Assembly: GCA_964508935.1 (NCBI GenBank)
Contig: CAZDVY010000001.1
Location: forward strand, 7,493 to 71,492
DNA from: an uncultured Candidatus Competibacteraceae bacterium
GTDB lineage: Bacteria; Pseudomonadota; Gammaproteobacteria; Competibacterales; Competibacteraceae
Direction: 5' to 3'
Length of the DNA stretch: 64,000 nucleotides
Shown: positions 2,426 through 62,179 of the stretch, in pieces
Layout: every line of letters begins with the position of its first letter
Numbering within the stretch: position 1 is the first letter of the stretch
Program-made: the position numbers and the translations under genes
The notes under the pieces: generated by a model
What the model saw: only the letters and a program-made list of their open reading frames with translations
The model's database searches: none
What the model was told of the DNA's origin: nothing

Positions 2426-2455
2426 GTGGCCTCCGTTAATCGTTCGGGTTATTTG

Positions 2456-3793: not shown

Positions 3794-3879
3794 AGGGTCA
3801 CTGTTCCTTCAACCGGAGGATGCTCTTTGACGGTTCCATACTGGCGTTCATTTTGGCAACAGAAATTAGAATGAACACC

Positions 3880-5848: not shown

Positions 5849-5883
5849 TCCCACCCACAGCCCTCCCTGCAAGGGGAAAGGCG

Positions 5884-6369: not shown

Positions 6370-6484
6370 TGACTGTTTTCCCTCCGCATGTCATTACCAA
6401 TAAACCAATGATTTTCGGCATTCCGAAATCTATAATCGTTAATTGTCATCACTAAAATACCACTCAACGTGGAGCCTAACGATT

Positions 6485-9144: not shown

Positions 9145-9409
9145 TGCCTTCCCCAACCTGTTGATCTTCAAGTGATTAAATCCGAGTCTACCTTGAACTG
9201 GCTTTTTATACCGTTTTTTAAAGACCGACTCACAAACTGGATTGTTTTATTGAAGATCATCAGTGCGGGGCTTTTCGCACAATTCGGGTAAACTATCCAT
9301 GCTTTCTTCAACGATACCCGGACCGTTCAGCCAGAACCGCACACATGGTTAAACTTTGGACATCCACGTCGATCCACGCTGCGCCCAGTTCTCTGGCGGA
9401 GGCTCTGCG

Positions 9410-10234: not shown

Positions 10235-10285
10235 TCCCCCGCCACTCCGATTCCGCCAGCACCGACCATTCCAAAGGGCAGCCCG

Positions 10286-23600: not shown

Positions 23601-23773
23601 AGAGCGTACTGCTCTACCAGTTTTAAATTCGGGAGCTGGCTGGCGCAATGACGCAACAACGCGGCAAATGCCGGGGCTACCGCCCCTTCATGCTGCGCAT
23701 CGGCTTGCGCCATAGCTTCCAACTGCTGGTAATAGGCGCGGATCGCTTTATGATGAGGTTTGAGATTGAGCAT
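20666..23773 (-). CDS. Single-polypeptide restriction-modification candidate (Type IIG/IIL, MmeI- or helicase-less Type ISP-like): N-terminal PD-(D/E)xK nuclease motif + gamma-class N6-adenine methyltransferase + C-terminal specificity region
   Basis: 1035 aa. Nuclease-like motif RPLRVDGAIVDQFALRLGLWEAKDRQDDL (D...ExK). SAM motif IIDPFVGTGNFI and catalytic motif IV VIIGNPPYN. The C-terminus LPRIPYASDFW...LEYHLGHRCALEWVIDQYQVKTDSRSGLVNDPN resembles the C-terminal domain of LlaGI-type enzymes as I recall it. No separate M or S gene is adjacent. Confidence 0.75.
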   Translation of the reverse strand: MLNLKPHHKAIRAYYQQLEAMAQADAQHEGAVAPAFAALLRHCASQLPNLKLVEQYALARDQRRPLRVDGAIVDQFALRLGLWEAKDRQDDLEQEIEKKWAAGYPKDNILFQSPDRIILWQNGREVFRADIGQAPDLLIEALQLFFGYQPPAYQQWQEAVAGFKDKVQELGQALLVIVQQERAGNPHFSAAFASFFRLCQESINPNLAVAAVEEMLIQHLLTERIFRKVFNNPDFINKNIIAREIEQVIAALTSRAFSREEFLKKLDHFYRVLESTAATIDDYAEKQSFLNAVYEQFFQGFAIKAADTYGVVYTPQPIVDFMVHSVNELLRREFDRSLSSSGVQIIDPFVGTGNFITRILREIDPAALKHKYTEELHCNEIMLLPYYIASMNIEHAYYQMAGEYQPFEGICLVDTFELAESRQHSFGFSIPENMHRVTRQKASDLFVIIGNPPYNARQANENDNNKNRVYGEVEKWVAESYAAHSSASNKNALSDPYVKAFAWATERLRNQPRGIIAFVSNNSFLDGLAFDGMRQCLAEEFAEIYHINLKGNARTSAERRRQEGGNIFDNKIRVGVGITFLIKRPKLDGKKADIWIYSTEDYLKYDDKQKILNDAIIYSNLPIQLAKVDLNHTWLTENLRPDFKKFIPLGSKEQKAGRRIARHVVFKKFSIGVQTGRDAWAYHFNAGRLLSNIKTTINFYNAQVYKWLDADEPKPTVDDLVDYEDRKISWTSSLKKALENGLKTRLNPNHIRICLYRPFTPQFVYFDPLLTHRRGQFPLIAPTRVQEQENRVICHTDKGSEKPFMVLISQGLVDMHLVGAGSSTQCFPFYIYSEDGQHRQENITGWALLQFSRHYRDSRISKWDIFYYIYGLLHSEDYRQHYAANLRRELPRIPYASDFWAYCRAGQQLAELHLNYQQQPEYPLTRLYAPDQPHDWTVRRMRWNAEKTAILYNDWLTLGGVPPEALEYHLGHRCALEWVIDQYQVKTDSRSGLVNDPNRPDDPQFLLRLIGQIAQISVETVKIIRALPPLIAPTA

Positions 23774-44401: not shown

Positions 44402-44529
44402 CAGTGCGAAACCGGGCAGACGAGGCAGGGAGGCTGATTGACACCGCCATGACGACGACGCACGATGCTTCTATAATCAATCATTCACAATATATCCATC
44501 AGTCCGTCATAGACCCGGAGAATGCCCCC

Positions 44530-44790
44530 ATGTTTGGAGAGAGTCACGATTTATTCCATGAGTTTCCCGAGTACAGGGACCGGATTGCTGAGCTGAAAGC
44601 TGTCAATGCCCAGTTCGCAGTGTTGTATGACGAATATCATACGGTCAACGCCGAAGTGGAACGGATCGAATTACAGATTGAGACTCCTTCAGACTTTTAT
44701 ACCGAGACCCTGAAAAAGCAGCGGCTACACCTCAAGGATGAGATTTACGCCATCCTGCGGACCCACTCACGCGCCGGAGCGTTGATCTGA
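44530..44790 (+). CDS. DUF465 (YdcH-like) small protein
   Basis: From ATG 44530: MFGESHDLFHEFPEYRDRIAELKAVNAQFAVLYDEYHTVNAEVERIE...LKKQRLHLKDEIYAIL. This is the DUF465 pattern. 86 aa. Confidence 0.75.
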   Translation: MFGESHDLFHEFPEYRDRIAELKAVNAQFAVLYDEYHTVNAEVERIELQIETPSDFYTETLKKQRLHLKDEIYAILRTHSRAGALI

Positions 44791-45114
44791 AAGCCGTTGA
44801 GAAGATACTCCATTCCCCTCTCCTCCTGAGGACGAGGGGGAGAGAGGCGCATCTAGCTCCCTGGAAAGGGGGGGAGTGCGTCGCCGCCGGACGGTGGTTC
44901 GATCGACTGCTGGCGCAGCTCTGGCCCGCGCCTGGCGCAGCCAGCCGAGGACGCAGCGCTCGATCTTATCCTGACTGGCCGGCGACAGATCGCGGAAAAT
45001 CAATGTTCCGGCACCAAGCAACAGGGTCAATCCACCCAGAAAGGTGACCAGGGGTTGCATGAACGCAATGGACAAAACCGCCAAGAGCGCGAGCAGAACA
45101 TGTCGAATTTTCAA
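44767..45114 (-). CDS. Small hypothetical membrane protein translationally coupled to the PP2C gene (locus B)
   Basis: TTG 45114-45112 overlaps the PP2C TGA 45113-45111 (TTGA). Hydrophobic IRHVLLALLAVLSIAFMQPLVTFLGGLTLLLGAGTLIF, then an Arg-rich and Ser/Gly-rich tail. The start is inferred. The track ORF runs on to 45174 inside the PP2C gene. Confidence 0.4.
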   Translation of the reverse strand: MKIRHVLLALLAVLSIAFMQPLVTFLGGLTLLLGAGTLIFRDLSPASQDKIERCVLGWLRQARARAAPAVDRTTVRRRRTPPLSRELDAPLSPSSSGGEGNGVSSQRLSDQRSGA

Positions 45115-46109
45115 GAGGCCCCTCCAGCATAGTCCTTGGGCTGGGTGAGTTTGCGCATGAGAATGACCGTACAATTATCATCCGGTTGGCATTGCTGCTG
45201 GCGGATGGTGGTCGCCAGTTCGGCCAATAATTCATCCAGGAGTTCCTCGATCGGTCGATGCGGTTGCGCCAACAGCATCGACCATCGCCGGATAAACGCT
45301 TGCGGATAATGCAGATGCCAAAGGCCATCGCTGGCCAGCAGGTAGACCCAATCGGGTTCCAGCGTCAGGGAGCGACGGTCGTTCAACCCACGCAAAAACA
45401 GGGGCAAATTGCCATCATGCAATTCATAAAGCTCCTCATCAATCGTATCCGCATAGAGATTCGGCGTCCCCAGGGTGCTGCCCAAAATAAAGGCCTGACT
45501 GATTTGGGAACTGGTCTGGACATGGACTTGCTGCCACCACTGGGCGCTGTCCAGCAGGCCCAACAGGGCGAGGTGAGTAGCGGGTACATGGTCTATCGTC
45601 AGGCACTGCACATGGTGGGCGTCAATGGCGTAAATGCGTGAATCGCCTACATGGAACAGCAGTCCGGGGGAATGGGGCGGAATTTCGAGTAGAATGAGCG
45701 TACAACCGGTTTCCAGCCCCGCTTGTTGAAATTCCTGATACAGCCGCCGGTGCAAGAGATGCAACTCATTGGATAGTTGAGCGAGTTCGACAACGGCTGG
45801 CAGTTCGAGCAGCCCTTCGACTGCTTTTTCCGAGGCTTCCCGTCCATGACTGTGACCACCCATACCATCAAGCACTGCCAGTCGTCGATGTCCGTGTGGC
45901 CAGCCGGTCAGTTGCAACTGGGTTTCCTGTTCGCGCCAAAGGAACCGGGCGCGTCCCCGGCCGTCAATCAGTAAAAAATTATCCTGGTTTTCCTTGCGCC
46001 CGTGGCCAGTTGGTGAAAGCAGCGAGCGCACAGCGATCTCCAACTGGGGGCCGCGACAGGATGATGCGCGATGAGGCGCCGCGTTTGAAAAAGAGGAATG
46101 AGTATGCAT
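45111..46109 (-). CDS. PP2C-family Ser/Thr protein phosphatase (locus B)
   Basis: GRKENQDNF, LAVLDGMGGHSHGREASE, LLASDGLWH and QPDDNCTVILMR. 332 aa. Confidence 0.85.
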   Translation of the reverse strand: MHTHSSFSNAAPHRASSCRGPQLEIAVRSLLSPTGHGRKENQDNFLLIDGRGRARFLWREQETQLQLTGWPHGHRRLAVLDGMGGHSHGREASEKAVEGLLELPAVVELAQLSNELHLLHRRLYQEFQQAGLETGCTLILLEIPPHSPGLLFHVGDSRIYAIDAHHVQCLTIDHVPATHLALLGLLDSAQWWQQVHVQTSSQISQAFILGSTLGTPNLYADTIDEELYELHDGNLPLFLRGLNDRRSLTLEPDWVYLLASDGLWHLHYPQAFIRRWSMLLAQPHRPIEELLDELLAELATTIRQQQCQPDDNCTVILMRKLTQPKDYAGGAS

Positions 46110-46304
46110 CTAAAGTCGGGTCATCGTCGTGAGCAACAGACATGATCAGTCCACCGGGCGGACAAGGTTCGATCCGTGGCGCCGGTGCTTCCTCGTGATC
46201 AGGCGCCCAGTCGTTTCATCCTTCTGCTAGACTAACTTAATGATGCGCCTTACGGCTGTTAATTCAAATAAATCTTTTGGAACTCTTTGATCAAACGATG
46301 GCTT

Positions 46305-48995
46305 ATGGATATCGAAACGCGTCTTGAGGAACTTGCGCAGGCTTATGCCGCTGGCCGTCTGAACGAAGCCGAGCTGGCGCGTCTTCAGGAAGAAGCCCTG
46401 CGCATAGTAGCAGACGATGGCGACCATGTACGGTTGTCAGACAGCGGCCTGCCCAGAGGAGAAAGCGATCCGGGAGGATCGCCGGCGGCTCCGGGAGCGT
46501 TGACGGCTGGGCGGGTGATTGGTCCTCCCGACCGGCAAATGCGACTGGTGCATGATCTCAGTGGTCGAGGACGTATCTGGCTAGCATACCCCGCTTTTTC
46601 TTCACAGGACGGCGGCGAACCTGCTGACGAATTCCGGGCCATCAAAATTTTTCTGCCCGCTGGTTACGAATCGGGTTCGATCGACTCAGTGCGCGACGAG
46701 CGGGCGTCGCGGGCGGATTTGATCGGCTTGCGTTCCTATCTCGCCAAAGCCAGGGCGCGGGTTGAGCTGGCCGTGAAACTCGACCATCCGGTAATCGCCC
46801 GCATCTATGGCTGGCGACAAGGTTCTGACGGATGGCCATTCGCTGAAATGGAATACCTCAACCCTCATCACGGTCGCAGCTTGGCGCAACTGCTTAAAGA
46901 ACAGGGAGGGGATGGGCTGTCCTGGGAGATGGCCGGAAAATGGTTGCGTCCAGTCGCGGCCGCTCTGGATTATGCGCGCCGCGAACATCGATTGGCCCAC
47001 CAGCATCTCGATGCAGACACCGTCTTCGTTACTGATCAGGGAACAGCTCGATTATTAGGCTTTGGTTTGGCGGCTGAAATTCGGGAACCACGCAGTGTTC
47101 TGTTTAGCACGGGTGGATCAGGGCGCGAGGCCACCGGAGAGGGTGCGATCGAATCGGTGGCCGCCGAAACGACCTTCCGCCGTGATGTCTTCGCTTTAGC
47201 GCTCTTGGCGTATCGGTTGCTGGCCGGACACAGCGTCCAGGAAGCCCAGGGCCAGCCGCCAGGCGCGGTGCCGCGCCCACCGGGATTGACGGACGACGCC
47301 TGGCAGGTTTTGCGGCGCGGCTTGGCGTACCCAAGTGAACTGTGTCCGACCGATGCCGGCCAGTTCATTCAGGCGCTGGACGCGGCGCAACGGCCAGCAA
47401 TAGCGTCTTCAGGCCGTGGTTCCCTGCCGAAGTGGACCTGGGCCTTGATGGTCGGACTAGCCTTGGCGATTAGCTTGGGCGTCTATTGGTTCAGCACGCC
47501 CATCGATCAGAGAACCGAACAGATCAGCTCCGAGGGCGTCGCTGGGCCGCCCTTATCTGGCGAACCGGAGCAAGGGACGACCACACCGGTGGAAGCGCCG
47601 GTCGAGGAAGGCGTTGCGTTACGGGAAGCAGAACGTGAAATCGACCAGCGCGCTTTCGAGGCTGCCCGCCGGATCGATACGGTTGCGGCTTACCAGATGT
47701 ATTTGCAACGCTGCCCGCAGTGTGGCTATGGCAAGGATGCGCGAGTTGCGATCAAGGGTTTGGAAACCCGAAAAAAAATCGAAGCGCTTAAAGCGGATTT
47801 CGCAGCACTGGCCACAGCGTTGGAGGAAGGGCGTGAAGAGCGTGGCAGCGAAGCGCTGGCCCGCCTGGATGCGCTGGCGACGTTAACGCCGGATGATCCA
47901 TTGATCACTGCTGGTCGGCAGCAATTAGCGCGCAGTTGGGTGAAAATGGCGCTGATCAGCCTGAACAAACCCGACCCGGACGAGGCGCGCAAATGGCTGA
48001 AAAAAGCGGAAGCCATCCAGCCGGAATTGCCGGAACTGGTCGCGCTGAATCAAGCGCTTAAACAGGCGGAAGCGGTTGAGCAGATCAAGCAAACCGATAC
48101 TGAAGCGTTCGCCGCCACCCGGCGCGCTGACACTCGCCGGGCCTACTGGGCCTATCTCGACCGTTGTGCGACGGGTTGCCGCCATCGCGCCGAAGCCGAA
48201 GCGGCTCTCGCCCGACTGGCCCCTGCTTATCCCGTGTTGCGGGACCGGCTAAACGACGGTTCGCAAGGGCCAGAAATGGTGGTGATTCCGGCCGGTGAAT
48301 TCCAGATGGGATCGCCATCCTCCGAAGTCGGTCGTTACAGCGATGAACCCACCCGGGCAGTGCGCATCGAAAAATCATTAGCAATCGGCAAATATGAAGT
48401 GATGTTTCACGAATATGACCGGTTTGCGACAGCGACGGGAAAGCCTCTGCCGGACGATCATGACTGGGGGCGCGGTCGGCGGCCGGTCATTAATGTCGAC
48501 TGGAAAAACGCTACTGCATATGCCGAGTGGCTGTCTCAGCAGACCGGCCAGCGCTATCGTCTGCCGACCGAAGCGGAGTGGGAATATGCGGCGCGAGCCG
48601 GAACGACCACCAGTCGCTATTGGGGCGACGATCCGAATGAAGGTTGCGCCTACGCCAACGCCGCTGATCTGGACGGCAAGAAGGTGTTTGTGGGCTGGAC
48701 GGTCATGCAATGCCACGATGGACAGGTCTATACAGCGCCGGTAGGCAACTATCGGAATAATGAGTTCGGTTTGTATGACATGGCAGGCAATGTGCTTGAA
48801 TGGACCTGCTCCATTTACGACAAGGAATCGAAGGCGCCAGCACAGCGTTGCCAGGAGCCAGGCGGCGACCAGGAAATGGTGGTGCGCGGCGGCTCCTGGA
48901 GTGACGAACCGCGCAACGTGCGTTCTGCCGACCGGCATCGCAGCCGTCCAGAATTCCGGGATTACTTCCTGGGATTCCGACTGGTTCGGGAATAG
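46305..48995 (+). CDS. Receptor pseudokinase: degenerate Hanks kinase domain + TM helix + Cys-containing helical repeats + FGE-sulfatase-fold ectodomain (locus B)
   Basis: The kinase-like region keeps RAIKIF (VAIK Lys). It has LSGRGRI for the Gly loop, HQHLDADT for HRDLKPSN and LLGFGLA for DFG. TM helix WTWALMVGLALAISLGVYWF (about 47432-47495). FGE fold from about 48268 (GPEMVVIPAGEFQMGS...RLPTEAEWEYAARAG...GLYDMAGNVLEWT...RGGSW). The ORF opens at TTG 46287; ATG 46305 preferred. Confidence 0.75.
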   Translation: MDIETRLEELAQAYAAGRLNEAELARLQEEALRIVADDGDHVRLSDSGLPRGESDPGGSPAAPGALTAGRVIGPPDRQMRLVHDLSGRGRIWLAYPAFSSQDGGEPADEFRAIKIFLPAGYESGSIDSVRDERASRADLIGLRSYLAKARARVELAVKLDHPVIARIYGWRQGSDGWPFAEMEYLNPHHGRSLAQLLKEQGGDGLSWEMAGKWLRPVAAALDYARREHRLAHQHLDADTVFVTDQGTARLLGFGLAAEIREPRSVLFSTGGSGREATGEGAIESVAAETTFRRDVFALALLAYRLLAGHSVQEAQGQPPGAVPRPPGLTDDAWQVLRRGLAYPSELCPTDAGQFIQALDAAQRPAIASSGRGSLPKWTWALMVGLALAISLGVYWFSTPIDQRTEQISSEGVAGPPLSGEPEQGTTTPVEAPVEEGVALREAEREIDQRAFEAARRIDTVAAYQMYLQRCPQCGYGKDARVAIKGLETRKKIEALKADFAALATALEEGREERGSEALARLDALATLTPDDPLITAGRQQLARSWVKMALISLNKPDPDEARKWLKKAEAIQPELPELVALNQALKQAEAVEQIKQTDTEAFAATRRADTRRAYWAYLDRCATGCRHRAEAEAALARLAPAYPVLRDRLNDGSQGPEMVVIPAGEFQMGSPSSEVGRYSDEPTRAVRIEKSLAIGKYEVMFHEYDRFATATGKPLPDDHDWGRGRRPVINVDWKNATAYAEWLSQQTGQRYRLPTEAEWEYAARAGTTTSRYWGDDPNEGCAYANAADLDGKKVFVGWTVMQCHDGQVYTAPVGNYRNNEFGLYDMAGNVLEWTCSIYDKESKAPAQRCQEPGGDQEMVVRGGSWSDEPRNVRSADRHRSRPEFRDYFLGFRLVRE

Positions 48996-49245
48996 CCCTG
49001 AACGTTTCGGGTAAAATATCCTGCAGTCGGTATTTTTCCGGGTCGACATGTCAGGTTGAGGACTCAGTCTGCGTGTAGGCATTACGGGATATGGCCGCTG
49101 GGCCTTTGCAGCAGGGATCGCTAAAACCATTTGAACAAGAGGGGTGATCCGAATGAGGTTACCCATTATCTGGGAGTATCGAAGCGATCGCGGGGTCCGG
49201 ACCGAAAAGCCCGACGGCGCTCGCTGATGCCATGATTAGGACGCC

Positions 49246-51219
49246 ATGATCAAAAAATCCAATACGCTGCCGGTTGGTTATCGTCTGCATCAGTACCGTA
49301 TTGAATCGGTGCTGGGTGCGGGCGGTTTCGGGATTACTTACATGGCTGTGCACGAAGCGCTGCGGACCCGGGCGGCCATCAAGGAATATTTTCCGGTGGA
49401 GTGGTCTTATCGGGACCGCGACGAGGTCAATGTTCTCGCCAACACTCAGGGCGGCTTGCCAACCTCGGATGCCGGCGAAGACGCCTGCTATACATGGGGG
49501 CTGGAGCGTTTTCTCACGGAAGCCCAGACCCTGGCCCAGGTGAATCATCCCGGTGTGGTGAAAGTACGGGACTTCTTTGAAGCCAATGGCACTGCCTATA
49601 TCGTCATGGACTATGAGGACGGGGAACCGCTGAGTCAACTCCTGCAACGGGAGAAAACCTTACCGGAGATACCGGTCCGCCGGTTGATCGAGGATGTATT
49701 GCCGGCCTTGGACGCCGTACACACTCGGGGCTATCTGCACCGCGATATCAAGCCCGCCAATTTGTACCGCCGCTCGGATGGTCGAACCATCCTGATCGAT
49801 TTTGGCGCAGCGCGCCAGGCGCTGGGTCGTCGTAGTAAAAGCGTGACTAGTGTATTTTCTCCGGGTTATTCGCCGATTGAGCAGTATCTGGTCGATGGCA
49901 AGGGCTATGGTCCTTGGACGGATATCTACGCTCTGGGAACCGTGTTGTATCACTGCGTGACTGGCGCAGCGCCGATTGAAGCGCCGGCGCGCGTCCTCGA
50001 AGATCCCCTGCAACCGGCCGAGGAGCTGGCCGCCGGGCGCTACAACCCGGCATTACTGCGACTGATCGACCGGGCCATGGCGGTCCGTCCCGAAAAGCGG
50101 TTTCAAACCGTCGCTCAGATGCGCGCGGCGTTTGAAGAGCCTTTGGCGAACGACGACGAGCGTACGGTCAAGCTGGAATTGCCGTTGCGCCCGGAGTTGC
50201 ACCGGAGCGGCGAAAAACCACGGCCGGCGGCAGGTGAACTGACTCATGAGTCCCACAAAGCCTCGACTCCCTCGCTATTTCAGCGACTGGGACAACATTG
50301 GCGGATGATGAGCGGATTGACGCTGGCTGTTCTGGTCGCCGGGGGAATAGTAATCTGGATGATGCAAGCGCCAGTCGAGCAACCGCCGATTGAGCAGCCT
50401 TCTCCGGTCAAGCCGACCAGTGGTATACCGCCCACTCATCCCCAACCAGGGCAAGTTTATACCGACCCGACAACAGGAATGGAACTGGTCTGGATTGCGC
50501 CGGGCTGCTTCAACATGGGCAGTCCGGAAACCGAACAGGATCGCAGCGCCAACGAGGCGCCTCATCAGGTTTGTCCGAAGGGCTTCTGGATGGGCAAGAC
50601 CGAAGTAACCAACGCCCAGTATCGACAATTTGAGAGCGGTCATGATAGCGGCGCCTATGAGTCCCACAACCTGAACGCGCCTGATCAGCCGGTCGTCCGG
50701 GTCAGTTGGCAGGAGGCGGTTGCTTACGCTGAATGGCTGTCGGGCAAGACTGGCTTGCGCTATCGACTGCCGACTGAAGCGGAATGGGAATACGCCGCGC
50801 GCGCGGGCCGGGCCGATTCCCGTTACTGGGGTGATGATCCGAATCAGGCTTGCCTTTACGCCAATATCTATGACAAAACCGCCCGTCAGGCCAAGCCGTT
50901 CAACTGGGCCAATTATCCCTGTCAGGATGGACAAGTCGCGGCGGCTCCAGTGGGTCAATACACCGCCAATGCGTTTGGTTTGCATGACCTGCTGGGCAAT
51001 GTTGCGGAATGGACTTGTTCCGAATACGACAGCGCTTATGCAGGTGGTGAAACCCGCTGCGCCGACCCGCAAGCAGCGGCAGGCGGGCGGCGGGTTCTGC
51101 GTGGCGGATCTTGGTCCGATTATCCGGGGCTGGTGCGATTCGCTTATCGTTTTCCCGCTGCGCCGGAATATGGCAAGTGGCGGTCTGATATCGGATTTCG
51201 CCTAGTGTTGGAACCCTGA
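49246..51219 (+). CDS. Receptor Ser/Thr protein kinase with FGE-sulfatase-fold ectodomain (locus B)
   Basis: LGAGGFGITY, AAIKEYFP, HRDIKPANL, LIDFGAAR and SPGYSPIEQY. TM helix MMSGLTLAVLVAGGIVIWMM (about 50305-50365). FGE fold GMELVWIAPGCFNMGS...RLPTEAEWEYAARAG...GLHDLLGNVAEWT...RGGSW. Confidence 0.85.
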   Translation: MIKKSNTLPVGYRLHQYRIESVLGAGGFGITYMAVHEALRTRAAIKEYFPVEWSYRDRDEVNVLANTQGGLPTSDAGEDACYTWGLERFLTEAQTLAQVNHPGVVKVRDFFEANGTAYIVMDYEDGEPLSQLLQREKTLPEIPVRRLIEDVLPALDAVHTRGYLHRDIKPANLYRRSDGRTILIDFGAARQALGRRSKSVTSVFSPGYSPIEQYLVDGKGYGPWTDIYALGTVLYHCVTGAAPIEAPARVLEDPLQPAEELAAGRYNPALLRLIDRAMAVRPEKRFQTVAQMRAAFEEPLANDDERTVKLELPLRPELHRSGEKPRPAAGELTHESHKASTPSLFQRLGQHWRMMSGLTLAVLVAGGIVIWMMQAPVEQPPIEQPSPVKPTSGIPPTHPQPGQVYTDPTTGMELVWIAPGCFNMGSPETEQDRSANEAPHQVCPKGFWMGKTEVTNAQYRQFESGHDSGAYESHNLNAPDQPVVRVSWQEAVAYAEWLSGKTGLRYRLPTEAEWEYAARAGRADSRYWGDDPNQACLYANIYDKTARQAKPFNWANYPCQDGQVAAAPVGQYTANAFGLHDLLGNVAEWTCSEYDSAYAGGETRCADPQAAAGGRRVLRGGSWSDYPGLVRFAYRFPAAPEYGKWRSDIGFRLVLEP

Positions 51220-51245
51220 ATGGACCGGTGAATGGAGAAAACGCC

Positions 51246-53399
51246 ATGAGCGAGACCGTTATGAAAGGGTTAGGGTTTGCGCTAGTGTGGATGCTAGCGC
51301 TGGTGTGGCCGGCCGATTTTGCGCGCGCTGCGGCGCCTGAAGCGCGAATGAACGTGGCAGTCGTCGAATTCAGCGTCATGGGCGATATGCATGAGCAGGC
51401 GGGCGCCGTTATTGCTGATTTGATGACGTCGGTGATTAACAATACCGGGCGCTTCACCCTCAAAGACCGGCTATCGCTATCAGCAGTAGCTAAAATCGCC
51501 AAGGCCCAGGATCAGGAACTGGGCTATACCGGGCTGCTCGATCCCAAGACCGCTGCTGAACTGGGTCAGCGGTATGGTTTAGACGCCGTGGTGATCGGGG
51601 CGGTCAGCAAGCCAGGTGACCTGATTACCGTTACGGCGCGATTGATCGATACCAAGACGGCCTCCCTGCTGCGCAGTGGTCAAATTCAGGGTAAGGACAT
51701 TGACACCATCCAGGTGAAGGTTAATGAACTGGCGGCGATGATTGCGGCGCCACCCGAACCGCCGCGCGCCTACGGATTGACGGTGCGCACCGAGCCGGCG
51801 AGCGCCAGCGTCCGTTTTCTAAACAGCCCAACGCCTTATCAACCGGGCGTCCGGTTGCCGCCTGGTGACTATGAGGTTGAAGTCAGCCAGTCCGGTTATG
51901 CCGCACGCCAGGAATCGGTGAAGATCGTAGACCGCGATGTCGCTATCACCGTGGCGCTGGACAAGGCCAAGTATGGCTTGACGGTGCGCGCTGAACCGGC
52001 GGACGCGCAGATCCGCTTGCTGGATGCCTCGGCCGCCTATCGGCCGGGAGTGGAATTGGCTCCAGGCAATTATGAGATCGAAGTGGTGAAGGACGGCTAT
52101 GTCTCCCGCAAGTTTCCGGTGCGAATTATCGACAGCGCATTGACTGTTCCAGTGACCCTGGAAAAACAACCGCCGCCACCGACACAGTATCGCTTGACGA
52201 TACAGACTGATCCTGCCCAGGCGACGGTTCGGTTACCGGGCGTCAAGACACCCTATCGACCAGGAGTAGAGCTGACGCCGGGAAATTATACGGTTGAGGT
52301 AAGCCAGTCCGGGTATGAGCCACAGCGGGTTACCGTCAATATCGTCGATAGTGATGTGACTGTACCGGTGAAACTGGTCAAATCGACCGAACCCGTCAAG
52401 CCGACCCAGTATCGGTTGACGGTTCGCCCCGATCCGCCAACAGCCAGGATACGGTTGCTGGGAATCAAGGCAGCCTACAAGCCAGGCCTAGCGTTAGCAC
52501 CAGGCAGTTACACGGTTGAGGTAAGCCACCCCGGCTATGATTCAAAACGGGTGTCGGTACGCATTGCGGATAGTGATGTGACTGTGCCGGTGGCCCTGAT
52601 CCAGCAACCCGAACCGCAGCAATACCGGTTGACGGTGCGGGCCGATCCGGCGGATGCCCAGGTGCGGTTATTAGGAACCCGCACAGCGTATCGACCGGGG
52701 GTGGCGCTGGCACCGGGCAGTTATACAGTAGATGTTTCCCGGTCGGGCTACGACTCACAGCGATTGACGGTGCGGGTCACAGATAGCGATGTCACCGTGC
52801 CGGTGGCACTGGCGAAGCAGCCCGAACCCGTGAAACCCGCTGAGTATCGGCTGACGGTGCGCACGACGCCCTCCAGCGCCCGGGTGCGATTGGTCAATTC
52901 CTCGTTTACCTACCGTCCCGGCGTACCCTTGCCGCCCGGCAACTACACGGTCGAGGTGAGTGGACGCGGTTATGAAACCGAGCAGAGGTCAGTGCGGATT
53001 GCCGATCGTGACGTGACGGAATCCATCACTTTGGAACGGGTTGCTACGGCAACCACTCCCGCGCCGCCCCCCCAGCCTGCGGCGCGGCCAGGAACCTGGC
53101 GGATCGGCTCAGTGCAGGTGGACGGCTCGATCAGTGGCGCGGATCGCTCCGAAGTGCAGCGGGTACTTAACCGCTATATCGGGCAGATCGCAACTCGCGA
53201 GAGCCTGCTGGACAGTGCGATGCAGGTCTATCGATCTACCGGGATCACCCTGAATTTCGCGGTGCGGAATTCGGCTTCAGGATCAGCGGAATTATCTGCG
53301 CGGGTTAGTCAGCGGCAGCGGCGCACTTATGAAAGTTCGGTCCCCCTGGTAACCCGTGGCCAACTGGAAAGCTCGGGTTTCAGGGTATCGGTTGATTGA
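51246..53399 (+). CDS. Secreted multidomain protein: LpoB/CsgG-like N-domain, six PEGA-type repeats, POTRA-like C-terminus (locus B)
   Basis: ATG 51246 (GGAGA 8 nt upstream). Signal peptide ...LALVWPADFARA/AAPE. The block VAVVEFSVMGD...AGAVIADLMTSVINNTGRFTLKDR...LGQRYGLDAVVIGAV...ITVTARLIDTKT resembles LpoB/CsgG/TolB-N alpha-beta domains. Six Y(G/R)LTVR..P..A.(V/I)R(L/F)...PG..L.PG.Y.VEVS..GY....V.I.D.DV.V.V.L units follow. The C-terminal WRIGSVQVDGSISGADRSEVQRVLNRYIGQIATRESLLDSAMQVYRSTGI resembles a ShlB-type POTRA. Confidence 0.7.
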   Translation: MSETVMKGLGFALVWMLALVWPADFARAAAPEARMNVAVVEFSVMGDMHEQAGAVIADLMTSVINNTGRFTLKDRLSLSAVAKIAKAQDQELGYTGLLDPKTAAELGQRYGLDAVVIGAVSKPGDLITVTARLIDTKTASLLRSGQIQGKDIDTIQVKVNELAAMIAAPPEPPRAYGLTVRTEPASASVRFLNSPTPYQPGVRLPPGDYEVEVSQSGYAARQESVKIVDRDVAITVALDKAKYGLTVRAEPADAQIRLLDASAAYRPGVELAPGNYEIEVVKDGYVSRKFPVRIIDSALTVPVTLEKQPPPPTQYRLTIQTDPAQATVRLPGVKTPYRPGVELTPGNYTVEVSQSGYEPQRVTVNIVDSDVTVPVKLVKSTEPVKPTQYRLTVRPDPPTARIRLLGIKAAYKPGLALAPGSYTVEVSHPGYDSKRVSVRIADSDVTVPVALIQQPEPQQYRLTVRADPADAQVRLLGTRTAYRPGVALAPGSYTVDVSRSGYDSQRLTVRVTDSDVTVPVALAKQPEPVKPAEYRLTVRTTPSSARVRLVNSSFTYRPGVPLPPGNYTVEVSGRGYETEQRSVRIADRDVTESITLERVATATTPAPPPQPAARPGTWRIGSVQVDGSISGADRSEVQRVLNRYIGQIATRESLLDSAMQVYRSTGITLNFAVRNSASGSAELSARVSQRQRRTYESSVPLVTRGQLESSGFRVSVD
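51771..53043 (+). repeat. Six in-frame tandem coding repeats (201-222 nt period) encoding PEGA-like units
   Basis: The conserved Tyr codons that open each unit sit at 51771, 51972, 52188, 52410, 52623 and 52845. DNA-level similarity is visible, e.g. gatagtgatgtgactgt(a/g)ccggtg in units 3 and 4 and gatagcgatgtcaccgtgccggtg in unit 5. Confidence 0.85.
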
Positions 53400-55653: not shown

Positions 55654-56034
55654 ATGAATATGCATCTCCACCGCAAGCAAATCGTTATTTTAGCGCTAGC
55701 TATTGCGTTGGCTGCCGCTTCCTATTGGATTCCCTTGCCACGCCAAACCGACGCTCCACCACCACGGTTGCTTGGCCTCATTGACCAGGCGGCGCCGGTG
55801 GAAGCCATCGCTTATGTCCGGGAACCTGCAACAGTTTGGCGGTTTCCCGTGACTGTACAAGTACCACAGACTCCCATTCAAACTGCTGTCCAGCGGTCGG
55901 CGGCAGAAGTTCATCCACTTCTGTCGTCGCCAGAGGAACGGCAGATCGGCCAACAAGATTTCACTGATGGTGCTCGCTCAACGACCTATCCTTCGTTAGC
56001 ACCGGTCAAGGGACTCGATATTCCTGGGCGCTAA
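55654..56034 (+). CDS. Hypothetical membrane/secreted protein (126 aa)
   Basis: N-terminal hydrophobic segment IVILALAIALAAASYWIPL, then a Pro-rich region. No motif recognised. Sits in an AT-rich spacer. Confidence 0.45.
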   Translation: MNMHLHRKQIVILALAIALAAASYWIPLPRQTDAPPPRLLGLIDQAAPVEAIAYVREPATVWRFPVTVQVPQTPIQTAVQRSAAEVHPLLSSPEERQIGQQDFTDGARSTTYPSLAPVKGLDIPGR

Positions 56035-58523: not shown

Positions 58524-60446
58524 ATGACTATGGTGCAACCGACCACGCCCTCCAAGAGTAGCGCCCGCCGCGCTAATGCGTTGCCGTCCGCCTGCCTGTT
58601 GGATGAGTATCGCATCGACTCCATTCTGGGCGCGGGCGGTTTTGGCGTGACCTACAAGGCGCTGGATACGCACTTGGAGACTTGGGTCGCCATCAAGGAA
58701 TATTTCCCGGTCGAATGGTCGTTCCGCGATGCGGATGGCGTCACGGTGCACCCGAACACCCAAGGCGCAACCAGCGGCCCCGAAGGACAATTGTCAGACT
58801 ATCTCTGGGGGTTGGAGCGCTTTCTCGATGAGGCGCGGGTGCTGGCGCGAGTCCAGCACCCTTATGTGGTTCGGGTAAAGCGCTATTTTCGAGCGCACGG
58901 CACTGCCTACATCGTGATGGATTATGAGGAAGGCGAACCGCTGAGCACCGTTCTGCGCGATGGGGAGACGCTCGGCGAGGATGAGGTGCGCGGCCTGCTC
59001 GAAGATGTGCTTCCGGCGCTGCAGGCTGTCCATGAACAAGGCTATCTGCACCGCGATATCAAGCCCTCCAATCTTTATGTTCGTTCCAGCGATCACCGGG
59101 TCATTCTGATCGACTTCGGCGCAGCGCGGGAGGCGGTGGGCCGACACAGCAAAAGCGTGACCAGTCTGGTGACGCCAGGCTATTCACCGCCGGAACAGTA
59201 CACGACCCGCAATGATCGCTATGGAACCTGGACTGATGTCTACGCCCTCGGCGCTGTACTGTATCGTTGTATCGCTGGTCGCGCTCCGATCGAAGCGGCT
59301 GAACGGCTGCTGGATGACAATCTGGAGCCGGCGATCAAGGTGGGCGCTGGGCGCTACAGCACCAATTTGTTAGAGGTGATTGACCGGGCTTTGGCGGTGC
59401 GTCCGGAACAGCGATTCCTCACCGTGGCCGATATGCAAGCGGCCTTAGCCGGTCCGCAGGATGAGAGCAGCAGCCAGACAGTGATCATGATGCCGCAGGC
59501 CAAGCCGATTAAGCTGGCGCAGCCACTGGGAATATCGCGGATTACTCAACCTCCAGAGAGGTTGGCGGAAGAATCGAACAAGAACAGTCAGCACGACGAG
59601 TTGATGAATATGACGCAGACGCCCACTGCCGCTGACTCTCAACTGCAACGACAGAAACTCCTGCATGTATCACCGTCAGGTGGAGCGGCGTCCCGATGGC
59701 GGCTACCGATCATGCTGGCCGGCGGCGTGACGCTGATGGCGACGGCGGCGATCATCGTCTGGCTCGGATCATCCGAACCGGTACTGGAGCGCACCCCAGT
59801 CTCGGAACAGAAACCGCCGCCTCGCTACAGTCTGAATCAGGGAGAGTTGACCCCATCACCGGCGTCGGTTGAAGCGCCGGTTGTGGTGACAACGCCGCCA
59901 GCGGTCACAGCACCGGAAGCTGCTCCTGCGGCGCCGCCGCCAGCTACGGCGCCCATCTCGCGTGATGCAGTCGAATCTCCGATTCCGGTGGAAAAGGGTT
60001 TAACGAGTCCACCGATTCCGGTAGAAGCACCGATTGTCGAGGGTGGGCCGGAACCATCCGATTCAGGCAGCCGTCCTCCGGCAGCGCAGGATCTGGAAAA
60101 ACCGCCGATTACCGGACCGGGCCAGCAATCAGTCGATACGGGAAAAACGCCGGAAGCAACCCCTGTGGAAAGCGCGCCGTTGCCTGGCCAGACTCCTGCC
60201 GTGACCACTAAGCCATCGGCTGATGCGTCAGCCGCGCAGGCAGTCAAGCCAAAACAGAAACTTCAAGCGAGCGACGCCAAACCACCGCCGAAACGACCTG
60301 CACGGCAAAGAACTGCCCGGAAGCGCAAAGAGCAACCGATCGTTGTTGCGCCGGATCAACCGGTTCAGACGCGGCCAGCACCGGTTGCGCCGAAGCGCAA
60401 TAATCTCTGGGATGCGCCCACTGACTCGGGATTCAACCAAAAATGA
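58524..60446 (+). CDS. Receptor Ser/Thr protein kinase with TM helix and Pro-rich/basic low-complexity ectodomain (locus C)
   Basis: LGAGGFGVTY, VAIKEYFP, HRDIKPSNL, LIDFGAAR and TPGYSPPEQY. TM helix WRLPIMLAGGVTLMATAAIIVWL (about 59695-59765). The tail is rich in P/A/V and ends KPPPKRPARQRTARKRKEQP. No FGE fold. Confidence 0.85.
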   Translation: MTMVQPTTPSKSSARRANALPSACLLDEYRIDSILGAGGFGVTYKALDTHLETWVAIKEYFPVEWSFRDADGVTVHPNTQGATSGPEGQLSDYLWGLERFLDEARVLARVQHPYVVRVKRYFRAHGTAYIVMDYEEGEPLSTVLRDGETLGEDEVRGLLEDVLPALQAVHEQGYLHRDIKPSNLYVRSSDHRVILIDFGAAREAVGRHSKSVTSLVTPGYSPPEQYTTRNDRYGTWTDVYALGAVLYRCIAGRAPIEAAERLLDDNLEPAIKVGAGRYSTNLLEVIDRALAVRPEQRFLTVADMQAALAGPQDESSSQTVIMMPQAKPIKLAQPLGISRITQPPERLAEESNKNSQHDELMNMTQTPTAADSQLQRQKLLHVSPSGGAASRWRLPIMLAGGVTLMATAAIIVWLGSSEPVLERTPVSEQKPPPRYSLNQGELTPSPASVEAPVVVTTPPAVTAPEAAPAAPPPATAPISRDAVESPIPVEKGLTSPPIPVEAPIVEGGPEPSDSGSRPPAAQDLEKPPITGPGQQSVDTGKTPEATPVESAPLPGQTPAVTTKPSADASAAQAVKPKQKLQASDAKPPPKRPARQRTARKRKEQPIVVAPDQPVQTRPAPVAPKRNNLWDAPTDSGFNQK

Positions 60447-60796
60447 AATTCAATCTGTGGCCTTTTTTACGCCGACGGCGTGAATCGATGGAAACAGTAC
60501 CGGTCCGGGCGCGGTTTATCCGTACTGATTCGGTAGGCAAAGGAGATCTGCGTCTGCGCTCAGCCTTATGCCGCCTGGGCCGGGCGCCAGACAACGACAT
60601 AAGCTTTGATAATGACTCGGTTTCCGGGCGTCATGCCGAGGTCTATTACCTGCCTGATGGTTCATTTCAAATCTGTGATTTGAATTCCACCAACGGTACT
60701 TTCGTCAACGGACAGCGGGTTCAAAGTCAACTTCTCAAGAATGGCGATGTGGTGGAATTAGGCGAAGTGCGCTTGCATTTCCGGGTCGGCGATTAG
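60443..60796 (+). CDS. FHA-domain protein 1 (locus C)
   Basis: Its ATG overlaps the kinase TGA (ATGA at 60443-60446). LGRAPDNDISFDNDSVSGRHAEV...ICDLNSTNGTFVNGQRV is a canonical FHA signature (G-R...S-x-x-H...N-G). Confidence 0.85.
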   Translation: MKFNLWPFLRRRRESMETVPVRARFIRTDSVGKGDLRLRSALCRLGRAPDNDISFDNDSVSGRHAEVYYLPDGSFQICDLNSTNGTFVNGQRVQSQLLKNGDVVELGEVRLHFRVGD

Positions 60797-60811
60797 GTCA
60801 GGGTAGGATTT

Positions 60812-61324
60812 ATGCCTCTTTATCGTGGTTTTAAAAAAGGGAGCTCATCCCCGAGCCCACCCGTTGAACCCACCCGGCGTATCGCCCGTCCCGAATCGGC
60901 GAATCGATCCCGTACGGATGGATCGCCGGTCGCCGAATCATCGGCGGCGATTCCAGCTACAACAACTCAAGATACGCTCTCCAAACTGGTGGTTGGCTGG
61001 CTAGTGGTGATTGGGGGTCCTGGGCGAGGCCAGGCGCTGCCATTGGGGTATGGCGTCAACGACATTGGGCGAGGCGCAGGTGCACGCATCCGGCTGGATT
61101 TTGGCGATGCGACGATTGCCTCCGAAAATCAGGCCGCCATCATTTACACCATGCGCTCCCGGCACTTCTATTTGCAATCAGTCGCTGCAGAAACCTGGCT
61201 CAATGGGCGTCCGGTTCGAGAATCGGTCGAGCTGAAAGGCGGCGAGACCTTGCAGATAGGACAGACCCGCCTGCGGTTTGCGCCACTGTGCGGCCCGGAT
61301 TTCGACTGGTGCGCTGCTCACTGA
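60812..61324 (+). CDS. FHA-like domain protein 2 (locus C)
   Basis: Disordered N-terminus, then LVVIGGPGRGQALPLGYGVNDIGRGAGARIRLDFGDATIASENQAAIIY...TWLNGRPV...LQIGQTRLRF. FHA-like topology, but with SENQ in place of the S-x-x-H phosphothreonine-binding motif. Confidence 0.65.
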   Translation: MPLYRGFKKGSSSPSPPVEPTRRIARPESANRSRTDGSPVAESSAAIPATTTQDTLSKLVVGWLVVIGGPGRGQALPLGYGVNDIGRGAGARIRLDFGDATIASENQAAIIYTMRSRHFYLQSVAAETWLNGRPVRESVELKGGETLQIGQTRLRFAPLCGPDFDWCAAH

Positions 61325-61339
61325 CACGGAGAGGGCGAT

Positions 61340-62179
61340 ATGGCGGCGTGGATTCATGATGAAGGCATGGCGCAAGGCAGCCGTTCCCGCCAGGAAGATG
61401 ACTATGGAGTATTTGAGTTGCCACCGGAGCTGGGCGCAGGTGACTTGTTGCTGGTGCTGGCTGATGGCATGGGCGGCGAGCAAGGCGGCGCCCGGGCCAG
61501 TGAGTTGGCAGTGCGCAGTTTTATCGGCACTTACGACACGGTGTCCGCAGTGACGATTCCTGAACGCCTCGAACGCACGCTAATCCAGGTAAACGCACAA
61601 ATGGCGCTGGAAGCGGCGACAGATCCGGAAAAGTTGAACGGCATGGGTTGTACTTTACTGGCAGTGGTGTTGGCTGAGGAAGGCCTGTACTGGATCAGCG
61701 TCGGTGATTCGCCGCTGTGGCTGTGGCGGCGGGGACGGTTGCATCGTCTAAACCAAGACCACGCCTATCGCAGCATCCTGGCGCGCCAGGTCTCGATCGG
61801 CGAGATCAGCGCAGAAGCCGCCGCCCGGCATCCCGATCGTAACGCACTGATGAGCGCAGTTACCGGTGATACTCTGGACTTGATAGACCTGCCGCGTCAG
61901 GCCTGCGCGCTCCGGCGCAGCGATCAGATTCTGCTGGCGAGCGATGGCGTACTGACGTTGAATGAGCAAGAGATTGCAGCAGTGTTGGCGAATCATCGGG
62001 TGAATGGAACACCCTGTCAGTCATTGCTGGCGGCGATAGCCGCCCATGGGCGTCCGCAGCAAGACAACATCACTGTGTTATGGGCGCGTTCGGCAAACTA
62101 TTCACCCAACGGCTCGTGGTGGCGTCGTTGGTGGGAATCGTTGGCCCAAAGCCGAGTCCACTCCCAGCCAGCCGAATAA
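61340..62179 (+). CDS. PP2C-family Ser/Thr protein phosphatase (locus C)
   Basis: SRQEDDYGVF, LVLADGMGGEQGGARASE, LLASDGVLT and QQDNITVLWAR. 279 aa. Its Trp/Arg-rich tail overlaps the convergent HAD phosphatase gene. Confidence 0.85.
   Translation: MAAWIHDEGMAQGSRSRQEDDYGVFELPPELGAGDLLLVLADGMGGEQGGARASELAVRSFIGTYDTVSAVTIPERLERTLIQVNAQMALEAATDPEKLNGMGCTLLAVVLAEEGLYWISVGDSPLWLWRRGRLHRLNQDHAYRSILARQVSIGEISAEAAARHPDRNALMSAVTGDTLDLIDLPRQACALRRSDQILLASDGVLTLNEQEIAAVLANHRVNGTPCQSLLAAIAAHGRPQQDNITVLWARSANYSPNGSWWRRWWESLAQSRVHSQPAE

Follow-up and report, generated by a model that had tools for sequence, protein, structure and literature searches.

In the threonine phosphorylation pathway (TPP) of type VI secretion systems (T6SS), the periplasmic protein TagR of Pseudomonas or RtkS of Serratia acts on the periplasmic part of the kinase PpkA, which leads to dimerisation and autophosphorylation, and the phosphatase PppA reverses the reaction (PMC10482370, PMC6082577). 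Membrane-damage signals are fed into PpkA by the ABC-transporter-like pair TagTS and the outer-membrane lipoprotein TagQ (PMC10482370). The 64,000-nt stretch of DNA analyzed here (contig CAZDVY010000001.1 of an uncultured Candidatus Competibacteraceae bacterium; hereafter the window) contains, at positions 44767-53399, a module of five genes encoding a small membrane protein, a PP2C phosphatase, a pseudokinase and a kinase that both carry an FGE-sulfatase (formylglycine-generating enzyme) fold, and a secreted PEGA-repeat protein. We give about even odds (a probability of roughly 0.5) to its being a Competibacteraceae-specific transmembrane Ser/Thr phospho-signalling system of the PpkA/PppA type, which reports the state of the periplasm and outer membrane. 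The preliminary description of the locus, made from the sequence alone, knew of no characterised pathway of such composition; the PpkA/PppA/TagR pathway of T6SS is nevertheless a close analogue.

The module resembles TagQRST-PpkA-PppA-Fha1 and RtkS-PpkA-PppA in encoding a single-pass kinase of the PpkA subfamily alongside a PP2C, and it can be likened to the TPP, where a separate periplasmic protein activates the kinase. The TagTS pair and TagQ of Pseudomonas are paralleled by an MlaE/ABC/MCE cassette, found in related loci, and by the secreted PEGA protein. A further likeness would lie in the FGE-sulfatase fold of TagR. Unlike in the TPP, the FGE fold is fused to the kinase, there is a dedicated pseudokinase paralogue, and both module and window lack an Fha protein of the T6SS type, TagF and T6SS genes. 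The transporter, where present, is of the Mla/MCE type, unlike TagS/TagT, and the PEGA partner, unlike TagQ, is not a lipoprotein.

A second group of relatives comprises the PASTA-type pairs PknB-PstP, StkP-PhpP and Stk1-Stp1, which likewise combine a Hanks kinase, one transmembrane (TM) helix, extracytoplasmic repeats that bind ligands and read the envelope, and a cognate PP2C. The module differs from these in its FGE/C-type-lectin sensor fold, in its Gram-negative gammaproteobacterial host, and in the addition of a pseudokinase partner and a secreted scaffold protein. The PASTA-type NCBIfam models gave partial matches far below their cut-offs (137 vs 450 bits; for the PP2C, Stp1_PP2C with 54.5 bits, E = 1.1e-14, vs an equivalog cut-off of 230 bits). 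The building blocks of the module and its overall logic are already known; what is new is that kinase and pseudokinase both bear FGE folds, that a PEGA/POTRA-like partner accompanies them, and that linkage to MCE genes recurs. No description of FGE-sulfatase combined with kinase and PEGA domains, or of MCE (Mla/Pqi) genes combined with a Ser/Thr kinase and PP2C, was found in the literature searched.

Proteins and intergenic region of the locus

The open reading frames (ORFs) and spacers of the module are as follows (window positions; evidence in brackets).

44767-45114, minus strand: small membrane protein, 115 aa (ORF, orthologue starts)
45111-46109, minus strand: PP2C phosphatase, 332 aa (Pfam)
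46110-46304: divergent intergenic region, 195 nt (GC content, conserved element)
46305-48995, plus strand: pseudokinase-FGE protein, 896 aa (Pfam, residue losses)
48996-49245, plus strand: spacer between pseudokinase and kinase genes, 250 nt (blastn remnants of a gene cassette)
49246-51219, plus strand: PpkA-like kinase-FGE protein, predicted active, 657 aa (Pfam, NCBIfam, PDB match)
51246-53399, plus strand: secreted CsgG-like/PEGA/POTRA-like protein, 717 aa (Pfam, AF2, Foldseek)

All five genes are under purifying selection, as judged from the ratio of non-synonymous to synonymous substitution rates (dN/dS) in three pairwise comparisons, and therefore the pseudokinase gene and the small ORF are functional genes.

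Judging from its sequence, the 657-aa protein is a Hanks-type Ser/Thr kinase of the PpkA subfamily and is predicted to be active. Its parts are:

aa 1-300 (49246-50145, plus strand): kinase domain
aa 354-372 (plus strand): TM helix, followed by a Pro-rich linker (hydropathy)
aa ~400-657 (50443-51216, plus strand): FGE-fold domain, predicted non-catalytic

Pfam analysis identified Pkinase (7.6e-35; 121 bits vs a cut-off of 31.7) and FGE-sulfatase (2.9e-51), and alignments with PpkA and PknB showed the motifs GAGGFG, AIK, HRDIKPAN and DFG to be intact. The best PDB match, over residues 4-297, was PpkA (5hnv; 216.7 bits, E = 4.5e-63), followed by PknB with 96 bits. The dN/dS values were 0.04-0.08 for the protein and 0.04-0.06 for the kinase domain. 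A mention of 5hnv in PMC9022976 was set aside, as it concerns another kinase.

The 896-aa protein is a pseudokinase kept by purifying selection (dN/dS of 0.10-0.12 for the kinase-like domain and 0.03-0.07 for the FGE domain), with the following parts:

aa ~70-375 (46512-47429, plus strand): N-terminal helix and degenerate kinase domain
aa 380-398 (47442-47498, plus strand): TM helix (hydropathy)
aa 400-645 (plus strand): periplasmic helical region with two invariant Cys pairs
aa 646-896 (48240-48992, plus strand): FGE/C-type-lectin-fold domain, predicted non-catalytic

Pfam matched its C-terminal part to FGE-sulfatase (PF03781; 3e-52), and its score for Pkinase (26.6 bits) is below the cut-off of 31.7 bits. 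Alignment with StkP revealed HQHLDADT in place of HRDLKPQN and GFG in place of DFG, i.e. loss of the HRD Asp, of the catalytic-loop Lys (replaced by Asp) and Asn (replaced by Thr), and of the DFG Asp. The position of the catalytic Asp is never occupied by Asp in 10 homologues of down to 41% identity (HQH, HQD, HQG, CQH, HRN, HRH), and the beta3 Lys, K114, is invariant in the pseudokinase homologues. No similarity between the pseudokinase domain and the neighbouring active kinase domain was detected by BLASTP. The invariant Cys pairs (C470/C473 and C621/C625) are placed in repeated “Y..YL.RC” motifs of the helical region of ~250 aa.

The FGE folds of the kinase and the pseudokinase are 46% identical to each other and, with dN/dS of 0.03-0.08, are among the most conserved parts of the module. 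The catalytic Cys pair of the Streptomyces coelicolor FGE (LCH...YC) is absent from both: the enzyme segment GGSYLCHDSYCN aligns with GGSW-SDYPGLV in the kinase and GGSWSDEPRNV in the pseudokinase, and the last ~40 residues of either protein contain no Cys. Since this pair is absent, both domains are probably binding modules. Among solved structures, the nearest to them are PvdO (131 bits, for the pseudokinase), PorK/GldK and FGEs. PvdO, PorK/GldK of the type IX secretion system (T9SS) ring and the variable proteins of diversity-generating retroelements (DGR) have the same fold, are likewise periplasmic and have also lost the catalytic Cys of FGE; unlike the module proteins, none of these is fused to a kinase, and no pyoverdine, T9SS or retroelement genes are located at the module. 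A DGR target was also considered at the locus and rejected, the only repeats being the PEGA units and the paralogous FGE segments.

The proximity of the pseudokinase FGE fold to PvdO, whose NCBIfam family bears the name of dihydropyoverdine dehydrogenase (163 bits, far below the 500-bit cut-off), would also be compatible with PvdO- or EgtB-like enzymes that modify a periplasmic substrate (the PEGA protein or a metabolite), the kinase parts serving to regulate or anchor them. The very strong conservation of the folds, the four conserved Cys inside the fold and the two Cys pairs in the neighbouring periplasmic region point in the same direction. We nevertheless regard this explanation as improbable, given that both proteins lack the Cys pair of formylglycine-generating enzymes, that no DinB or iron-binding domain is present, unlike in EgtB and OvoA, that sensor domains are typically found in such fusions with a signalling kinase and a pseudokinase, and that structural FGE folds, such as PorK/GldK, are well known.

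The secreted 717-aa protein has an N-terminal hydrophobic segment and a signal region ending in ARA-AAP. It has no lipobox Cys, there being no Cys in its first 60 residues. Its parts are:

aa 30-175 (51333-51770, plus strand): TolB-N/LpoB/PelC/CsgG-fold domain, following the signal peptide
51777 to ~53060 (plus strand): six PEGA units (Pfam, DNA repeats)
aa ~620-717 (53103-53396, plus strand): POTRA-like domain (AF2 and Foldseek)

Pfam recognised PEGA (95.6 bits), with CsgG just below its cut-off (20.3 vs 20.8 bits), and six DNA repeat units with a spacing of 201-222 nt were found at 51777-52946. A PDB sequence search gave zero matches; therefore fold comparison was used. The AlphaFold2 (AF2) model of the N-terminal domain (pLDDT 75) matched TolB, GNA1162, PelC, LpoB and CsgG in Foldseek (E = 1e-7 to 1e-4). 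The model of the C-terminal domain (pLDDT 80, core ~90) has a beta-alpha-alpha-beta-beta topology, and its top 50 Foldseek matches were all POTRA domains, albeit statistically weak ones (E = 7e-3 to 0.6; rmsd 2.3-2.7 Å over ~77 residues). No 16-stranded beta-barrel follows at the C-terminus, the protein ending at the POTRA-like domain. Orthologues range from 579 to 1027 aa and keep both end domains, while the repeat region varies (~4-10 units of ~70 aa); dN/dS of the gene is 0.04-0.13.

The left-arm phosphatase exceeded the cut-offs of two Pfam families, SpoIIE (36.9 bits) and PP2C_2 (29.0 bits). All metal-binding motifs are retained (D43, DG(M)GG 81-85, GDS 155-157, SDG 260-262, DN 311-312) and the corresponding columns are invariant in an alignment with five other PP2Cs. 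The protein belongs to a divergent lineage with two family-specific insertions (dN/dS ~0.10-0.14).

The TGA codon of the PP2C gene overlaps the TTG start of the small membrane protein gene by 4 nt within TTGA (junction CTCTTGAAAATT). Orthologues of the small protein begin with MKIRH or MKTWH; therefore the 115-aa reading (44767-45114) was adopted. The first 20 residues of a 135-aa reading of the same ORF have no counterpart in the orthologues, and this reading was rejected. Hydropathy analysis revealed two adjacent hydrophobic segments, predicted to form a hairpin. Conservation covers residues 1-63, including the segment FRDLxPxxQ...LGWLR (dN/dS 0.13-0.19), and is followed by a variable basic tail rich in Arg, Ser, Thr and Pro (dN/dS 0.36-0.68), predicted to be cytoplasmic. 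The protein matched no Pfam, NCBIfam or PADLOC family.

The 195-nt region shared by the two arms has a GC content of 49.7% (36% in its last 80 nt), compared with 58.8% for the window. Within its low-GC half, 20-90 nt upstream of the pseudokinase start, lies a conserved block (~46216-46285; TCCTTCTGCTAGACTA...GCGCCTTACGGCTGTTAATTCAAATAAATCTTTT, also rendered TCCTTCTGCTAGACTA...ATGATGCGCCTTACGGCTGTTAATTCAAATAAATCTTTT), which is unique within the window. The full block is almost invariant among loci with proteins 66-76% identical and saturated synonymous sites; down to 49-52% protein identity, the core CTTCTGCTAGACTA is still retained together with an ATAAT-like hexamer that follows it. The block fits no assignable promoter consensus or sigma-factor type; scans for sigma-70 promoters and terminators yielded fewer sites than in shuffled sequence, with none in the intergenic region, and a riboswitch and small-RNA search of the two spacers identified no Rfam family and no tRNA. 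The block is a candidate promoter or operator of the right arm. A sequence scan found no plus-strand terminator-like site in either right-arm gap; the distance between the kinase and PEGA genes is 26 nt in the window, and the called genes overlap by 4 nt in another locus (L088).

The observations of the preliminary description are confirmed. Its five ORFs are present with the coordinates and overlaps it gave, including the PP2C TGA overlapping the TTG of a 115-aa hydrophobic protein, and its domain calls (Pkinase, PP2C, FGE-sulfatase, PEGA) were upheld by profile and fold searches. Pfam, the StkP alignment and hydropathy agree with a degenerate kinase with one TM helix, Cys-containing helical repeats and a C-terminal FGE fold, followed after 250 nt by an intact Hanks kinase with a TM helix and the same fold. 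The distinction it drew between the two is borne out by the catalytic residues, lost in the 896-aa and intact in the 657-aa protein, and the hydropathy-based topology is consistent with its placing of the kinase domains in the cytoplasm and the FGE folds in the periplasm. For the 717-aa protein, the CsgG/LpoB-like fold and six PEGA units were recovered, whereas its POTRA-like end corresponds to weak Foldseek matches.

Conservation of the module and fusions of its domains

The pseudokinase and the PEGA protein were each searched against 5.8 billion proteins. Each search returned ~100 full-length clusters, the named ones being nearly all from Competibacter, Contendobacter or Competibacteraceae. 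By neighbourhood look-up, Ca. Contendobacter odensis (52% identity) and two other metagenome-assembled genomes share this arrangement: DUF465, the small gene and PP2C on one strand, and the pseudokinase, kinase-FGE and PEGA genes on the opposite one. When metagenome contigs were scanned with only the pseudokinase domain as seed, 64 loci were obtained, and the window domains were mapped onto these. The five-gene order was found in ~45 Competibacteraceae loci (49-96% identity), so the combination first noticed in the window recurs elsewhere, and the lack of conservation that would have refuted the preliminary description does not apply. Among the orthologous loci with enough flank to be assessed, the PP2C gene was present in 40/41, the small gene in 36/37, the kinase-FGE gene in 24/24 and the PEGA gene in 20/21; as a few contigs are duplicated, these counts are not independent. 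In one locus (L128, 14739-14812) the malic enzyme gene directly follows the kinase gene and there is no PEGA gene, and in two others (L103 and L106) the PP2C gene is gone and the small gene is retained beside the pseudokinase.

Pfam analysis confirmed the housekeeping flanks of the module (ppc, pgi, DUF218 and DUF465 genes and the malic enzyme gene). It had earlier been taken for a self-contained accessory module; its GC content is ordinary for the window, its inheritance vertical, and the same DUF465 and malic enzyme flanks recur across one family. The locus is vertically inherited and family-specific, and not an island.

Protein, genome-contig and metagenome searches did not find the five-gene set outside Competibacteraceae. 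Of the nearest pseudokinase homologues outside the family, one of 41% identity (P0103) had none of the other module genes among its neighbours, and three metagenome loci of 34-36% identity (L134-L136) showed no module genes upstream, their contigs ending just past the gene. In these three loci the pseudokinase-FGE genes directly follow a fabH-fabG-fabF cluster, and the contig ends perhaps represent assembly breaks at repeated FGE sequence. A genome-contig scan with the full-length pseudokinase alignment gave no Competibacteraceae among the matches listed; it returned at least 80 generic FGE loci, recognised through the motif LPTE[AT]EWE, and most FGE genes at these loci had no kinase, PP2C or PEGA neighbour among the matches listed.

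Domains of separate module proteins were found fused in other organisms. PEGA repeats are joined to an FGE fold in P0114 and P0117, and in one locus (L004) that gene adjoins an upstream kinase-TPR gene. An exhaustive HMMER search with the N-terminal domain of the PEGA protein identified 3084 representatives; in 100 remote relatives that were scanned, Pfam detected CsgG in 97/100, FGE-sulfatase in 9/100 and PEGA in 4/100. In nine secreted fusions, one to three CsgG-like domains precede an FGE fold (P0256, P0269, P0271, P0282, P0286, P0293, P0302, P0367 and P0380). In P0245, a PpkA-like kinase (249 bits to the module kinase) is followed by a CsgG-like domain 63% identical to that of the PEGA protein. 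Five pairs thus occur as single polypeptides: kinase-FGE, kinase-CsgG-like, CsgG-like-FGE, CsgG-like-PEGA and PEGA-FGE. These fusions make plausible the earlier proposal that the secreted PEGA protein is a partner.

The conserved order could in principle be explained by inherited synteny alone, the two arms and the PEGA gene having no joint function: every locus comes from one family, DUF465, the malic enzyme gene and a 126-aa hypothetical gene are conserved along with the module though unrelated to it, and the PEGA or PP2C gene is missing in single lineages. Overlapping or very short gene junctions, the pairing of kinase with PP2C in every related context examined, the fusions listed above, and an order kept where synonymous sites are saturated all run counter to this explanation, which we judge to have only about one chance in ten's worth of credit, i.e. 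to be quite unlikely.

Kinase, PP2C and varied sensors are also combined in an array of an uncultured gammaproteobacterium (L010, 2726-12408). It contains four PpkA-like kinases, three of them with Sel1 repeats, an Lcl_C lectin-like domain and an FGE fold, respectively, as sensors and the fourth with none recognised, as well as a trypsin-FHA protein among the kinases and a PP2C at the end, and has the appearance of the same type of signalling equipped with several sensors.

FGS (FGE-type), PEGA, kinase and inactive-enzyme domains are combined in predicted conflict systems, some of which operate near the membrane (Kaur, Burroughs, Iyer and Aravind 2020, PMC7159879; for the recurrence of FGS, PEGA and kinase domains also bioRxiv 10.1101/2023.09.22.558884). 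The module might accordingly be read as an immunity system in which an invader is sensed by FGS domains and the response is set off by kinase signalling, with the kinase/C-lectin targets of DGR as a further precedent; the array with its variable sensors, trypsin-FHA protein and PP2C, the varying number of PEGA repeats among orthologues, and matches of the kinase domain to the PADLOC models PD-T4-6 and mad6 would be in keeping with this. The PADLOC matches are, however, generic and limited to the kinase domain, the other three proteins giving none. Unlike the FGS conflict systems, the module is conserved rather than variable and has no NTPase core, vWA domain, effector-associated domain or effector; no STAND, MoxR or vWA NTPase, effector domain, reverse transcriptase or template/variable repeats were found in the module and its neighbours, and the window as a whole has no NTPase gene of this kind. 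The FGE folds, instead of diversifying, are its most conserved parts (dN/dS 0.03-0.08), and the inheritance is vertical, with a fixed chromosomal context and ordinary GC content. A role in conflict is, in our opinion, very improbable, more so than any other alternative considered.

One relative of the kinase is found in a T6SS cluster: in Aliamphritea ceti (L006), a kinase-FGE fusion is encoded beside TagF, PP2C and Fha. Together with the adjacent PP2C gene, the closeness of the kinase domain to PpkA and the activation of PpkA by a periplasmic protein in the TPP model, this raises the question whether the module serves a T6SS located elsewhere in the genome as its threonine-phosphorylation switch, with the kinase acting as PpkA, the PP2C as PppA and the fused FGE fold as TagR. 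Such a role seems unlikely to us. The 64-kb window contains no T6SS structural gene, TagF or T6SS-type Fha, and none was seen next to the module in the four loci whose genes were annotated one by one with Pfam (L001, L002, L087 and L088). The Aliamphritea kinase is a distant relative (50 bits), and the genome has at least three paralogous PpkA-like kinases, so that likeness to PpkA marks a subfamily and not a T6SS role. No link between Competibacter and T6SS was found in the literature searched.

MCE cassette and proposed signalling

The distance between pseudokinase and kinase genes, 250 nt in the window, is ~3.5 kb in many of the orthologous loci. The ~3.5-kb stretch consists of four tightly packed genes, encoding an MlaE-family permease (PF02405, 3.8e-31), an ABC ATPase, an MCE/MlaD protein (PF02470 and NCBIfam MCE family, 2.1e-25) and a TPR protein; a complete cassette is present in L091 (12709-16348). 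Cassette genes directly follow the pseudokinase gene in 17 metagenome loci: at least three of the four were found in 12/34 loci with enough downstream sequence, and five more loci (shorter or decayed) carry some of them. In L103 the cassette is half-decayed, with only truncated pieces of the permease and ATPase genes.

No cassette homologue was detected by tblastn anywhere in the window, and the MlaE/ABC/MCE set is absent apart from remnants. These were revealed in the spacer by blastn against L091, L092 and L124 (one match of 82% over 188 nt). Positions 49015-49055 resemble a segment from inside the MlaE gene as it stands in L091 and L092 (41-42 nt at 78-81%, E = 5e-4 and 3e-6), and positions 49108-49245 match, at 82%, the last 43 nt of the TPR gene (49108-49150) and the spacer preceding the kinase gene. 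On this sequence evidence the 250-nt gap is best read as a deletion scar of the MlaE/ABC/MCE/TPR cassette, because insertion of the cassette in other lineages would leave no internal gene fragments in the window.

The cassette is related to the Mla and Pqi MCE systems through its MlaE permease, ABC ATPase and MCE protein; unlike in Mla proper, the scores of its proteins do not come near the equivalog cut-offs for MlaE and MlaD, and the window retains sequence remnants only. Independent support for the MCE link comes from P0103 (1260 aa), which has tandem pseudokinase domains with HRN replacing HRD, followed by a TM helix and an FGE fold. Its gene is flanked by a PqiA-like gene on one side and a PqiB-like MCE gene on the other (L003, 9388-15231).

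We propose that the active kinase and its dead paralogue, each with one inner-membrane span and a non-catalytic, C-type-lectin-like FGE fold in the periplasm, would form a heteromeric receptor. Binding of a ligand or partner to the FGE folds would alter the contact between the two and trigger autophosphorylation, by analogy with Pseudomonas, where periplasmic TagR is thought to drive PpkA dimerisation; the divergently transcribed PP2C would reset the system. The secreted PEGA protein may act as periplasmic partner, serving as a spacer or scaffold of variable length that extends outward from the receptor to approach the cell wall and the outer membrane. In the ancestral operon the two receptor genes would have been separated by genes for a TPR protein and an MCE ABC transporter of the Mla type, which the lineage of the window would have deleted. 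Given this ancestral cassette, the monitored signal would most likely be envelope lipid or outer-membrane integrity, a link in which we have less confidence than in the general model. Speculative candidates for the output are the Ser/Thr-rich cytoplasmic tail of the small protein, whose translation would be coupled to that of the PP2C, and the FHA proteins of a paralogous kinase module 7 kb downstream.

A more far-reaching version, which we put forward tentatively and think rather less likely than not to apply in full, holds that Gram-negative bacteria of this family have a hitherto undescribed type of envelope surveillance, in which the kinase/pseudokinase-FGE pair is physically coupled to the MCE transporter and the PelC-like/PEGA/POTRA scaffold spanning the periplasm, so that defects in lipid traffic would be converted into Ser/Thr phosphorylation, with TagQRST-PpkA as a specialised offshoot.

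Several points weigh against a PpkA/PppA-type envelope-signalling system. All functional steps proposed for it are deduced from sequence. The module contains no FHA-domain protein and no obvious output domain. Loss of the PEGA gene (L128) or of the PP2C gene (L103, L106) indicates that neither is strictly required. In the searches made, the five-gene set is restricted to one family, mostly uncultured, and with shared housekeeping flanks its order could partly reflect plain synteny. As the window has no MCE cassette, a lipid link could at this locus be no more than ancestral. The statistics behind the POTRA assignment are weak; PvdO, the nearest solved relative of the pseudokinase FGE fold, carries an enzyme name in NCBIfam; and the FGE-sulfatase fold of TagR is our assumption.

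Sensing of outer-membrane state and lipid transport in Gram-negative bacteria is partly understood, the known sensors being two-component systems, Rcs and sigma-E. To our knowledge, the ligand of TagQRST-PpkA, the best-known example with a Ser/Thr kinase, is not known, and this system has been studied only in the context of T6SS. The module offers a natural FGE-kinase fusion, which establishes the partners in signalling, a kinase-pseudokinase pair that selection has kept in bacteria, and a recurrent MCE-transporter linkage in two architectures, Mla-like and Pqi-like. If the proposal is true, it would provide a testable path from lipid-transport status to phospho-signalling and a hint at the ligands of TagR-type proteins. 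Competibacteraceae are the main glycogen-accumulating competitors in phosphorus-removal plants, and because of this role regulators of their envelope and aggregation are of some applied interest.

Paralogous kinase modules and neighbouring genes

The 64 kb of the window contain three paralogous kinase/PP2C modules, of which the module described above is one. The other two consist of the following genes.

9356-10234, plus strand: PP2C, 292 aa (third module)
10286-12913, plus strand: kinase-TM-FGE protein, 875 aa, TM helix at aa ~514-534, FGE-sulfatase 5.5e-50 (third module)
58524-60446, plus strand: PpkA-like kinase, 640 aa, with a TM helix and a long Pro-rich extracytoplasmic tail (second module)
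60443-60796, plus strand: FHA protein, 117 aa, PF00498 1.3e-22 (second module)
60812-61324, plus strand: weak FHA/YscD-like protein, 170 aa (second module)
61340-62179, plus strand: PP2C (second module)

The three active kinase domains are mutually 60-64% identical: that of the 640-aa protein is 60% identical to the module kinase, and that of the 875-aa protein 64%, with 50% identity between the FGE folds of the latter pair. The module PP2C is 25-30% identical to the other two PP2Cs of the window. The third module (9356-12913) has no pseudokinase or PEGA partner. Pfam detected no FHA domain in any of the five module proteins, and the only FHA proteins in the window are those at 60443-61324, which, speculatively, are the nearest candidate phospho-readers for the module studied here.

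At the left border of the module, the convergent DUF465 gene (44404-44790) shares 24 nt of its 3′ end with the 3′ end of the small membrane protein gene (44767-44790). The 126-aa hypothetical gene that accompanies the malic enzyme gene (55654-56034, plus strand; no Pfam family) keeps the same position in many orthologous loci (e.g. L087, L088, L090, L102, L109 and L113).

Further genes of the window include a 1035-aa ORF (20666-23773, minus strand) with a Type ISP coupler, an N6 DNA methylase domain and a Type ISP C-terminal specificity domain; neither a nuclease nor a motor domain was among its reported matches, and the product may be a Type ISP restriction-modification enzyme that is truncated or has only the methylase. 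A neutral-lipid cluster (1169-8470) encodes a patatin-like phospholipase, two wax-ester synthase/DGAT proteins and a fused fatty-acyl reductase/short-chain dehydrogenase, and is accompanied by a TetR regulator (532-1191), a set of genes worthy of note in an organism that stores glycogen and polyhydroxyalkanoates (PHA).

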